From: Candidatus Nanohaloarchaea archaeon
GTDB lineage: Archaea; Nanohalarchaeota; Nanosalinia; Nanosalinales; Nanosalinaceae
Assembly: GCA_046497485.1 (NCBI GenBank)
Contig: JAWOFP010000040.1
Location: 1 to 38,462, forward strand
Reading direction: 5' to 3'
Length of the DNA: 38,462 bases
Each line of letters starts with the position of its first letter. The first letter of the stretch is position 1. Positions 34,449 to 38,172 of the stretch are shown piece after piece. The notes beneath the pieces are model-generated. The model was not told where the DNA came from. It did not search any database and was given only the letters and a program-made list of their open reading frames with translations. Made by a program: the position numbers and the translations under genes.

Positions 34449-34817
34449 GTGGCACTAGGCTTCCTGAACAAGAAAGAGAATAATTCTGAAGAAACTGTAA
34501 TTGAAGACGATTTCGTTGAGCTGGACGCAAAGACTACAAATGAGAACAAGAAAGTTGTAGTTAGAGCAGAAACACTCCGCGAATTTGACGATGTGGAGGA
34601 CGTCCAGAATAGATTAAGAGATAATCAAATTGTCTGGGTGAATATCAAGCCACTGAAGCAGAAGGACATGTCCAAGTTGAAGAGAGCAGTTAAGAGACTG
34701 AAGAAGACTGTCCGATCAGTAGATGGGGACATCGCTGGAGTGGATGAAGACTGGATTGTAATCACTCCAAGTTATGCTGAGATCGAGAGAACAGGAGACG
34801 AAATCAGCGACAAATAA
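34449..34817 (+). CDS. sepF: Cell division protein SepF
   Basis: IVWVNIKPL, VDGDIAGV, IVITP. Confidence 0.88.
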   Translation: MALGFLNKKENNSEETVIEDDFVELDAKTTNENKKVVVRAETLREFDDVEDVQNRLRDNQIVWVNIKPLKQKDMSKLKRAVKRLKKTVRSVDGDIAGVDEDWIVITPSYAEIERTGDEISDK

Positions 34818-36498: not shown

Positions 36499-36765
36499 TT
36501 ATGCTGAAGGGCCTTTGAAGAAGCTGTCTTCAACATTTTCAGTGTTTTCAAATGGGTTATCAATAGACTCTTCAACTTCATCTTTCCGAGTCTCGGACTT
36601 TACTTCTACAGGATGGAACGATGGTTCAGTATCAGAAGTATCGATCTCATCCAGTGTTTCAAACATTTCAAGTATCTCATTAAAGTCCTTTTCTAGGCCT
36701 TCTACCTCATCTTCATCAAGTTTTATCCTTGAGTTTTCTGCGACCTTTCTGATTTCCTCTTTCAT
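36499..36765 (-). CDS. gatC: Glu/Asp-tRNA amidotransferase subunit C
   Basis: Typical GatC pattern; directly upstream of gatA. Confidence 0.9.
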   Translation of the reverse strand: MKEEIRKVAENSRIKLDEDEVEGLEKDFNEILEMFETLDEIDTSDTEPSFHPVEVKSETRKDEVEESIDNPFENTENVEDSFFKGPSA

Positions 36766-36854
36766 AGATAACTGTTGGAATAGAATGTTTTTTAGGTTTG
36801 AATGATGTTAGAAAATCAGGTCAGTGAACAGTTATGAACGGTTCAACAATAAGG

Positions 36855-36862
36855 TTTATAAA
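36855..36862 (+). promoter_or_regulatory. TATA box upstream of the hairpin array
   Basis: TTTATAAA. Confidence 0.55.
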
Positions 36863-36884
36863 GCGGCGTAGAAAATGTTAGTAT

Positions 36885-37060
36885 AGTAAGAACTACATTT
36901 GTTCGCTTGGGCGCGAACGATTCAGATCGAACTTGACTCGCGGGCACGAGATCAGGTTCATGCGACATATCGAATCGAACTTTGGGCAAAGTTCGAACAA
37001 GTATCATGTGTTGAAAGTCTTGGGCAAGACTTCAAGTTATTCTAAGGTAGAATTACCTAC
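36885..37060 (+). ncRNA. Multi-hairpin element with four GGGC-capped stems (candidate ncRNA or ftsZ leader)
   Basis: Hairpins at 36899-36920, 36929-36959, 36975-36996 and 37011-37035, plus a fifth at 37045-37058; G-U pairs on the + strand. Confidence 0.6.
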
Positions 37061-37065
37061 GCCGA

Positions 37066-37073
37066 TTTAAAAA
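37066..37073 (+). promoter_or_regulatory. TATA box proximal to ftsZ
   Basis: TTTAAAAA about 35 nt before the ATG. Confidence 0.5.
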
Positions 37074-37107
37074 GGTTAGGTATATCGATACACGGGAGAA
37101 AAGTATA

Positions 37108-38172
37108 ATGGAATCTATAATCGACAACGCTCAAAATACAGAAAAGACCGAAAATCTAGAAGATGTAAAAGATGCTAAAATTGTAGTTGTAGGCGTTGGA
37201 GGAGCTGGCAACAACCAGGTAACAAGAATACAGAATAAGGAAATTGAAGGCGCAGAAACAGTAGTAATCAATACAGATAAACAACACCTACAGATGAGCT
37301 CAGCTGACCGCAAAATACTGGTCGGAAGAGATCTTACAAAAGGCCTCGGAGCAGGAGGACAGCCAGAAAAAGGCGCAAGATCCGCAGAAGAAAACCGAGC
37401 CGAACTAAGAAACCTGTTCAAAGACGCAGACATGGTCTTCCTTACCGCAGGAATGGGAGGAGGAACGGGGACAGGAGCCTCACCAGTACTCGCAGAAATC
37501 GCAAAGAAAGAAGACTGCATAGTAATCGGAACAGTCACAATGCCTTTCGAAATTGAAGGCGCAAGAATGAGCAAAGCAGAAGAAGGCCTCTACAAACTAA
37601 GACAGCATGTAGACACAGCAATCGTAATTGAAAACGACAAACTACTTGATATCGCAGGAGACATGCCTCTTGACCAGGCCTTCGGAGTAGCAGATGAATT
37701 AATTACAACAATGATCAAGGGAATCACAGAGACAATCTCCCAGCCAAGCTTGGTTAACTTAGATTACGCAGATGTTCAGGCAATCATGAACGAAGGCGGA
37801 GTAGCAGTTGTAGGATACGGGGAGTCCGACACCAACAACAAAGGAAAGGAAGCGATCCACGAAGCACTCTCCAATCCACTACTTGATGTAGAGTTCGATG
37901 GAGCAAACGGCGCACTACTTCATGTAGCAGGAGGCACAGACCTCACATTGAACGAAATCAACGAAGTAGGACAACATGTAAAATCCAAGCTTGACAACAA
38001 CGCCCAGACAATCTGGGGTGCAAGAGTCAAAGACGAACTACAGGGAACACTCCAAGTAATCTCAATCATCACAGGAGTAGAAAGCCCTTACATCCTTGGA
38101 GATGTCGAGGAAGAACAGGAAACTGAAGTAACAGGAGATGTAAACGACTTAGGACTGGAAGTGATGAAGTAA
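37108..38172 (+). CDS. ftsZ: Cell division protein FtsZ
   Basis: VGVGGAGNN, GMGGGTGTGASP, NLDYADV. Confidence 0.98.
   Translation: MESIIDNAQNTEKTENLEDVKDAKIVVVGVGGAGNNQVTRIQNKEIEGAETVVINTDKQHLQMSSADRKILVGRDLTKGLGAGGQPEKGARSAEENRAELRNLFKDADMVFLTAGMGGGTGTGASPVLAEIAKKEDCIVIGTVTMPFEIEGARMSKAEEGLYKLRQHVDTAIVIENDKLLDIAGDMPLDQAFGVADELITTMIKGITETISQPSLVNLDYADVQAIMNEGGVAVVGYGESDTNNKGKEAIHEALSNPLLDVEFDGANGALLHVAGGTDLTLNEINEVGQHVKSKLDNNAQTIWGARVKDELQGTLQVISIITGVESPYILGDVEEEQETEVTGDVNDLGLEVMK

Follow-up and report, generated by a model that had tools for sequence, protein, structure and literature searches.

The window analyzed here is from contig JAWOFP010000040.1 (38,462 nucleotides (nt), positions 1 to 38,462 of the forward strand) from the Candidatus Nanohaloarchaea archaeon assembly GCA_046497485.1, and the element of interest is an array of small hairpins in the 342-nt spacer between the divergent genes gatC and ftsZ. 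The ftsZ gene (37108–38172, + strand, 354 aa; Pfam Tubulin 2.4e-46, FtsZ_C 2.3e-30) encodes one of the two FtsZ paralogs present in the genomes of the order, while gatC (36499–36765, – strand; Pfam GatC 1e-14), with gatA behind it, lies outside the element. In what follows, G000 denotes the assembly to which the window belongs (967,558 bp, 97% complete), other G numbers denote genomes and L numbers loci, f1 is the family of the window, and f2, f3, f4, and f5 are further families within the same order (Nanohaloarchaea).

The array consists of four hairpins on the + strand, which an initial annotation, made from the letters of the window, had described. They are present exactly as written there, at the correct coordinates, and far beyond chance. 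The first hairpin, H1 (36899–36920; TTGTTCGC/TTGGGC/GCGAACGA), has an 8-bp stem and the loop UUGGGC, H2 (36929–36959; GAACTTGACTCG/CGGGCA/CGAGATCAGGTTC) carries one bulged A and one G·U pair, H3 (36975–36996) has a stem of 8–9 bp and the loop UGGGCA (or GGGC), and H4 (37011–37035) shares this loop and has one bulged A. Their GGGC motifs begin at 36909, 36942, 36984, and 37022, at spacings of 33, 42, and 38 nt. Also on the + strand and upstream of H1 are a distal TATA box, TTTATAAA (TATA1, 36855–36862), which is the predicted promoter of the structured RNA, and a conserved GAAAATGTTAG block followed by a predicted transcription start at ~36883–36887 (together 36871–36887). Downstream of H4, a small hairpin that we designate P_a (UUCUA-AGG-UAGAA, 37040–37052, or 37036–37056 according to the repeat finder) is a fifth hairpin that had been overlooked, and is followed by a candidate hairpin, P_b (CUACGCC ... 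GGUAUAU, 37057–37085), the 15-nt loop of which holds the A-rich box TTTAAAAA (37066–37073) that had earlier been read as a second TATA box. A Shine–Dalgarno (SD)-like GGGAG (37094–37098) lies 10–14 nt 5′ of the start codon; the 3′ end of the assembled part of the 16S rRNA reads GGATCACCTCC, a normal anti-SD, and SD motifs in G000 peak at –15 to –11.

This hairpin cluster is well beyond chance. Only seven perfect GGGC-loop hairpins with stems of at least 6 bp occur in the whole of G000 (both strands), three of them within the array, which is also the sole place in G000 with at least three TTGGGC motifs within 300 nt. The + strand folds with −70.5 kcal mol–1 (z = −3.5), and none of 200 shuffled sequences was equally stable; the – strand fold is also strong (z = −6.1), and since both strands fold well, folding of the window sequence alone does not give the strand. 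A looser search for hairpins of the same type returned 28 matches genome-wide, of which three are in the array; most of the remaining matches fall within genes, and none of them form a second cluster. A regulon of such hairpins was accordingly rejected for G000. A dispersed repeat or miniature inverted-repeat transposable element was likewise rejected, as the module and its TTGGGC cluster are unique in G000 and a covariance model of H2 finds one match per genome, such that the element is single copy.

Our comparative analysis is based on 18 + 39 ftsZ-upstream regions, 56 of which were trimmed from the distal TATA box to the start codon to give 43 distinct leaders of 224–292 nt. Locus L054 was left out of the trimmed leaders, as it has no distal TATA box by pattern, though TTGGGC sites are visible in it; L012 and L019 were left out because they gave no short-core match, and L045 was left out of the test of the stem around the A-rich box (no A run of at least 4); L006 and L053 were omitted from the MAFFT alignment of H1. 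Covariation in H1 and H3 was scored in fixed 24-nt scripted windows (40 distinct sequences for H1), because MAFFT mixed registers between rows. With each window picked as the best hairpin in its interval, compensatory changes were observed at nine of nine stem positions in both hairpins, with 147 compensatory cells in H1, compared to 52 ± 6.6 after shuffling (0/500), and 120 in H3, compared to 43 ± 5.1 (0/500). H2 combines an almost unchanging upper stem, CUCG/CGAG, with a lower stem that has been repeatedly rewritten: ten of the twelve pairs change on both sides, the 80 compensatory cells compare with 42.8 ± 5.5 after shuffling (0/500), and the covariation score of 0.340 compares with at most 0.149 when the partner columns are slid. 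Finally, 95% of cells in P_a are paired across 42 distinct sequences, with no double changes, and with 14 G·U as opposed to 2 A·C combinations. Stems that are free to change around loops that are fixed are the signature of a structured nucleic-acid strand that is read by something sequence-specific.

The constancy of the loops is seen most directly from the 209 GGG[CA] sites in the 43 distinct leaders, 140 of which read TTGGGC. Of these sites, 167 are in hairpin loops closed by stems of at least 4 bp and 139 in loops closed by stems of at least 6 bp, compared to only 212 of 6338 GGG[CA] sites elsewhere in G000 that are placed in stems of the latter length. Across leaders, the loops are tallied as TTGGGC (75), GGGC (31), CGGGCA (17), GTGGGA (14), and others, and GCCC occurs zero times in all 18 + 39 family leaders. 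At the last site, equivalent to H4, some genera have a hairpin, while in others its place is taken by one or two UUGGGC motifs that are unpaired. In several lineages, the loops have switched together: every loop reads GUGGGA or UUGGGA in the Nanosalina-like L033, L036, L039, L040, L049, and L053, the loops of L090 read CUUGGGA, those of L032 (M3_22) are also of the GGGA type (GUGGGA, UUGGGAAG, and UGGGAA forms), and all three hairpins of L080 (f5) read UUGGCG, with no GGGC left. Any one genome has stems of differing sequence, such that these concerted switches cannot be put down to recent duplication; they suggest a common partner that may have changed its preference or may accept either C or A at this position. 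The loop motif that had been proposed as Y-GGGC-R is better given as YUGGGM, since GUGGGA or UUGGCG is found in some lineages.

The element is a single copy per genome and is found across the order. Spacer DNA is matched in 27 of the 36 other genomes of the family, with its best-kept part at 37037–37091 (>90% identical across genera), all 18 of the homologous loci that were fetched continue into ftsZ, and the array is present in 39 of 39 nanohaloarchaeal ftsZ loci of the named genome collection. All 43 distinct family leaders have it, always before the same one of the two ftsZ paralogs, and it was found in three genera of the family that had been missed by BLAST (L087/L031, L088, L089, and L090). 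By eye, arrays are seen in 13 loci of the order that belong to other lineages or to lineages without a BLAST match, among them loci of f3 (L077, L078, L079, L097, and L098), in f4 (L081, L099, L100, and L106), in f2 (L101), and in f5 (L080, with the variant UUGGCG hairpins); in f2, f3, and f4, a TATA box and UUGGGC/CGGGCA hairpins lie ahead of the ftsZ ortholog. The H2 covariance model, which matches 36928–36959 in the window, finds matches in 44 of 70 genomes of the order, in practice one per genome (41 of 49 in f1 plus the window's own, two of eight in f4, and none of 12 in f3, f2, and f5 combined), and these adjoin ftsZ in all 31 of the 44 positive genomes for which coordinates were checked. 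Comparison of the ftsZ upstream regions, along the lines that the initial annotation had proposed, shows the array to be kept across the order with its loops conserved, and what had been described as a structured RNA with one repeated loop motif, tied to ftsZ, is upheld by covarying stems, fixed loops, order-wide presence, and single-copy occurrence.

The layout of the leader is conserved as well. From 5′ to 3′, it comprises two to four TGAACAG boxes, the invariant TTTATAAA, the conserved GAAAATGTTAG, three to seven GGG[CA] sites, GTTCTAAGGTAGAAT, then TACCTAYRCCGNY-TTAAAAAGG-TTAGGYRTAG, an SD-like AGGCTGAT or GGGAG, and the ATG, with the SD equivalents in relatives reading AGGCTGAT or GAGGAGAT. 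TATA1 is invariant in 18 of 18 aligned loci, a TATA-like box is found at the same position in the other families, and the GAAAATGTTAG block is kept at a fixed spacing 3′ of TATA1. In the window, two TGAACAG/TGAACGG boxes (GTGAACAGTTATGAACGGTT, 36824–36843, + strand) form a candidate transcription-factor site, the 20-mer of which is unique in G000 (allowing up to four mismatches). The GAAC of this box is invariant in the 18-sequence alignment and two to four boxes occur in most loci; in most genera, these copies are direct or inverted (GTGAACAGTnnTGAACNG) and lie 15–60 nt upstream of the distal TATA box, and boxes are found at the same position in L003–L060, L098, L100, and L106. The boxes are probably a transcription-factor site common to the divergent gatC and ftsZ promoters. 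Separately, L031/L087 (G020) and L045 carry a 40–50-nt insertion downstream of the A-rich box, directly ahead of the ftsZ start codon. It contains AUGAUGA ... CUGAU, which resembles a box C/box D or K-turn motif, and which could be a lineage-specific L7Ae-type site. In the genus of the window, furthermore, a 27-nt inverted repeat (36850–36876/37052–37078, 78% complementary), which the initial annotation had also overlooked, links one TATA region to the other and is not kept elsewhere. Both of its orientations read CTACGCCG-N-TTTAWAAA. The repeat was rejected as a closing stem, as its 5′ arm changes without compensation outside the genus and lies upstream of the predicted start.

The second FtsZ paralog, which is ~50% identical and is found in each genome of the order (L082–L086 and L092–L095), has a plain TATA box and an SD-led start, with no array upstream in nine loci. 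No array was found in four outgroup genomes; the exception among the outgroups is G060, a DPANN-sized genome in which the hairpins CUCUU-GGGG-AAGAG and UUCUU-GGGG-AAGAA lie 60 nt apart, ~320–390 nt upstream of ftsZ (L105). The H2 model scores one of these two hairpins weakly (17.5 bits), and they could be a distant analogue or a chance resemblance.

The array is linked to ftsZ rather than to gatC. While gatC adjoins the array in most loci, it is missing or displaced in eight genomes that we read as array-bearing (L033/L088, L054, L058, L080, L081, L097, L099, and L101), where the array stays before ftsZ with no gatC in the 1.2–1.5 kb upstream, or with gatC 887 nt away. The asymmetry of the motif alone cannot tell which strand is the RNA strand. 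However, the + strand fold is the more stable in 40 of the 43 leaders, by a mean of 6.4 kcal mol–1, and TATA1 has a purine-rich flank resembling a B recognition element (BRE) on its + side only. These comparative data, together with the G·U pairs of P_a, favor the + strand RNA that had been proposed from the G·U pairs of the window, although the lean of the G·U pairs in H2 itself is slight.

We then considered whether the element belongs to a known family. At the gathering score, the only Rfam 15 matches in the window are four tRNAs, with no T-box, mini-ykkC, CsrB, or RsmZ, and the best match in 36600–37300 (E = 1.1) is in the ftsZ coding sequence; no known family is therefore matched around the array, in line with the initial annotation, which had recognized none. 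The GAAAGTC..GGGC of H4 resembles a conserved stretch of RNase P RNA, an identity that was rejected, as 26 of 37 family genomes have RF00373 far from ftsZ (in G021, at 267,694 vs 811,2xx). RF00373 has no match in G000, in which the 23S rRNA (RF02540) was not found either and which has a partial 16S rRNA at a contig end (C54); the missing RNase P RNA and 23S rRNA are probably assembly gaps rather than losses. Signal recognition particle RNA was rejected as well, as RF01857 matches another contig (C59:2023–2304, 105 bits). A search for CsrA (PF02599) gave no match in G000, with a control search matching three of 14 reference genomes, and an array of GGA (ANGGA) loops is absent from the leaders. 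The element does have the general traits of a cis-regulatory leader, with a conserved structure on the sense strand, between a predicted promoter and the start codon of the ortholog. In the texts reached by our full-text searches, we found no description of it.

Taking these observations into account, we consider the array to be part of a ~220-nt ftsZ 5′ leader that would offer multiple sites to a putative sequence-specific factor, a reading that we would accept about as readily as doubt; transcription, start site, read-through, protein binding, and regulatory outcome are all predicted here from sequence. In the four tRNA genes of the window, 21–26 nt separate the TATA 8-mer from the mature 5′ end, and this spacing predicts an RNA start at 36883–36887, ~15 nt before H1, and a leader of ~222 nt. 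The RNA would start ~22 nt after the distal TATA box, near 36885, on the ftsZ strand, and would pass through four hairpins in which the stems are free to vary and the apical loops must read YUGGGM, before crossing the 3′ module (P_a, the A-rich box, and the SD) and continuing into ftsZ. Runs of at least five T, which are the archaeal termination signal, occur once in the 43 leaders compared to 11.3 expected, and no T-run terminator is seen in the leaders between the array and ftsZ; as T runs are rare, transcription from TATA1 is expected to read through into ftsZ. With its three to seven identical loop motifs, the leader would be a multivalent platform on which a trans-acting factor could land, either as several copies or as one oligomer. 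This factor would most likely be an RNA-binding protein, and its occupancy could set the translation and/or stability of the ftsZ message through the SD-proximal module, by way of ribosome access or mRNA life. More specifically, and more tentatively, this could be a dedicated lineage-wide riboregulatory leader in which the YUGGGM loops cooperatively recruit a new archaeal RNA-binding protein that has co-evolved with the loops (GGGC, GGGA, and GGCG). Of the two forms that the initial annotation had left open, a noncoding RNA or a long leader, the leader is the better fit and a free CsrB-like sponge the poorer one, given that no T-run terminator is seen, that a conserved SD follows, and that there are three to seven sites in a single copy. 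The coupling of division to host contact that had been raised as a possibility is not supported.

Several observations weigh against this leader reading. Contigs from three sequencing runs, one of which is labeled metatranscriptomic but is probably DNA, comprised a mixture of relatives and gave no usable signal for the ends or the strand of an RNA. The step that couples occupancy of the loops to ftsZ expression is the weakest part of the model, because no SD-sequestering helix was seen, and our searches for a partner (discussed below) identified none. A runs are depleted in the leaders as well as T runs, such that the depletion of T runs is partly structural, and it was rejected as a marker of the strand. 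The evidence on the strand from wobble pairs is weak (38 G·U vs 30 A·C in H2 and 31 vs 25 in P_b), and interior mismatches, at 12 vs 7, lean only slightly toward the + strand. For P_a, a palindromic transcription-factor site on the DNA is an equally possible explanation. The covariation of P_b is moderate, with five of seven pairs changing on both sides and 19 compensatory cells compared to 8.4 ± 3.8 after shuffling (1/500), only five of its seven pairs form in the window, and a crude order-wide test for stems enclosing the A-rich box gave no clear excess over chance, with stems of at least 6 bp in 21 of 42 and five of 13 loci compared to 22% of shuffles. Finally, the geometry of the A-rich box plausibly fits a short-leader promoter.

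This last point leads to the most serious alternative, which we consider possible, if doubtful: that there are two transcription units, with the array forming a promoter-upstream noncoding RNA that starts from the distal TATA box, and ftsZ being expressed as a short-leader mRNA from the A-rich box. The upstream RNA would in this case be a free multivalent decoy (sponge) or act through transcriptional interference, and P_a would be an operator, in keeping with the TTCTA-N3-TAGAA palindrome and its lack of compensatory changes. The A-rich box contains a TTAAAAA that is invariant in the family alignment and lies 38–63 nt before the ATG in most loci, on DNA like that of the local tRNA promoters, and the 45–50 nt around it are the best-conserved DNA of the spacer, at a place where the evidence for P_b is moderate. 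However, read-through from the array into ftsZ would be expected in any case, with no oligo-T terminator seen between them. Moreover, the box of genus g27 reads CACAAAAAG, which is a poor TATA box, that of L090 ends 17 nt before the conserved start codon and is thus too close to be its promoter, and an RNA that began 22 nt beyond the A-rich box would have its 5′ end within the SD of the window, which would thereby be cut. Compensatory changes also link the arms CUAYRCC and GGYRUAG on either side of the box, with clean double changes between close relatives (TATACC:GGTATA in L047 vs TATGCC:GGCATA in L048) and a UG:CA double change in L015, L058, and L042, and the alternative pairing around the box is weaker than P_b. 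A distal, regulated long-leader promoter combined with a proximal short-leader promoter would reconcile both sets of points. We note in addition that in all homologous loci, the A-rich box places a run of at least five T on the – strand directly before ftsZ, which could stop antisense transcription from ftsZ.

Returning to the multivalent leader, we searched for its putative partner among both RNAs and proteins. There is no second locus in G000 with clustered complementary GCCCAA. An rRNA partner or mimic was rejected, as neither UUGGGC nor GCCCAA occurs in the assembled 3′ part of the 16S rRNA, with the 23S rRNA not assembled in G000. The neighboring 81-aa zinc-ribbon protein was rejected too, being conserved, but located away from ftsZ in five of five complete genomes, and the window holds no small ribbon-helix-helix open reading frame (ORF) between the promoter and ftsZ. 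As a side observation, a SepF homolog (Pfam PF04472, 1.1e-13) is encoded at 34449–34817 (+ strand), 2.3 kb upstream of ftsZ, with the zinc-ribbon ORF and gatA-gatC in between, such that two division genes are loosely clustered.

An RNA partner of a different kind is offered by tRNA-Gly, to which the loops might bind by a kissing interaction in which UUGGG pairs with NCC-A37-A38, in which case the leader would resemble a T-box in sensing the status of tRNA or amino acids and tying division to it. The anticodon loop of tRNA-Gly(UCC) in G000, CUUCCAA, is indeed complementary to UUGGG with one G·U pair, tRNA-Gly(GCC) is also present, and in both main variants, UUGGG(C/A) and UUGGCG, the UU is retained and the next three letters are a glycine codon (GGG or GGC). 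We nevertheless find this improbable. In G005, the loops of which read GUGGGA/UUGGGA, tRNA-Gly(UCC) is 99% identical to that of G000 despite the change in the loops, and thus does not covary with loop positions 1 and 6. In addition, the CGGGCA loops lack the UU, no element that would read the tRNA 3′ end is seen and no Rfam T-box is matched, and a complementarity of 5 nt to one of ~45 anticodon loops is weak. We note that tRNA-Gly(GCC) (G000:C17:14967–15069) has a 30-nt intron after position 38, and that tRNA-Gly(CCC) was not detected in G000 and three other genomes of the family, while one f3 genome has it.

We grant an equally small likelihood to the array having no macromolecular partner at all, in which case it would be a sensor of a small ligand or ion, a K+-dependent G-quadruplex formed by the GGG of the loops, or a purely structural element that affects stability or pausing. 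The guanidine-II riboswitch is likewise built from hairpins in tandem, with loops that are fixed and stems that are free to vary, most leaders have at least four GGG tracts, and organisms living in brine are expected to have high internal K+. However, four of the 43 leaders have only three GGG sites and f5 has only GG, the flanking U and C/A are conserved despite being needless for a quadruplex, GGGA loops cannot self-pair, and some sites are unpaired.

Still less likely is an RNA from the opposite strand, that is, a long gatCA 5′ leader presenting GCCCAA loops and transcribed from the A-rich box in reverse (TTTTTAAA). The – strand folds well, as noted above, TTTTTAAA resembles the promoter of the local tRNA-Ala, and gatC is the neighbor in most loci. 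The array nevertheless remains with ftsZ in the eight genomes in which gatC is absent or displaced (including L054), the + strand fold is the more stable in nearly all leaders, and P_a tolerates G·U far more often than A·C; furthermore, a separate TATA-like box lies ~25 nt ahead of the gatC start codon, and TATA1, with its BRE on the + side, would be left unexplained. Least credible of all is an element that acts as DNA (iterons, cruciform sites, a replication origin, or an array of transcription-factor sites), for while the motif is strictly one-stranded, as in iterons, and the TGAACAG boxes and P_a look like protein sites, the free change of sequence with complementarity kept and G·U tolerated points to RNA, no orc1/cdc6 is found among the scanned neighbors, and position and orientation are fixed relative to the TATA box and ftsZ.

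If the leader is bound by an RNA-binding protein as we suggest, no earlier case of a post-transcriptional switch acting on cell division in archaea, or of a CsrA-like multivalent RNA–protein system in these organisms, would be known to us, and in an obligate episymbiont, it could tie division to the state of host-delivered supply. We know of very few archaeal cis-regulatory RNAs, and of none for cell division. In an order of DPANN archaea with genomes of ~1 Mb, every conserved noncoding stretch is likely to matter. The array is small, has sharp limits, and is backed by abundant covariation, and it provides a direct way into the control of FtsZ synthesis in an organism that is an obligate symbiont. 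The loop motif, together with its natural GGGA and GGCG variants, could serve as bait for a new archaeal RNA-binding factor, and at the least, the element is a new RNA family that could enter Rfam.

Among known systems, the closest comparison is with CsrA/RsmA, which is titrated by the CsrB/RsmZ sponges and binds multi-site leaders such as those of pgaA and glgC. Here as there, a short G-rich motif is repeated, mostly in apical loops on differing stems, in a multivalent arrangement, and the sites of the leaders precede the SD. The motif is GGA/ANGGA in those systems, however, as opposed to YUGGGM here, CsrA was not found, and the host is archaeal. Being in cis and single copy, with three to seven sites and no terminator seen, the array is nearer to a CsrA-target leader than to a CsrB sponge. 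The guanidine-II riboswitch (mini-ykkC), which lies before the gene that it regulates, is similarly a tandem of small hairpins in which the stems covary, the loops are strictly conserved, and the linkers vary; it has, however, two hairpins that kiss through ACGR tetraloops, whereas there are three to seven here with the 6-nt UUGGGC, and the loops of the GGGA lineages are not self-complementary. The bacterial T-box leaders present a codon-like triplet in a loop of an mRNA leader, much as the loops here keep UU and a glycine codon, but the array lacks the Stem I architecture and a recognized UGGN antiterminator, and has repeated loops rather than one specifier.

With regard to the target, ftsZ2 of Halobacteria is transcriptionally controlled by CdrS. 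Bacterial ftsZ is under post-transcriptional control by the small RNA DicF and the antisense RNA StfZ. In all of these cases, and on our reading in that of the array too, the target is a division tubulin gene and the control is at or before translation initiation; the regulators are, however, a small RNA acting in trans, an antisense RNA, and a DNA-binding protein, whereas the array is a set of structured hairpins on the sense strand. The element appears to be a new structured RNA family with a rare target, the division gene of an archaeon, and would in kind be an mRNA leader that is both structured and multivalent.

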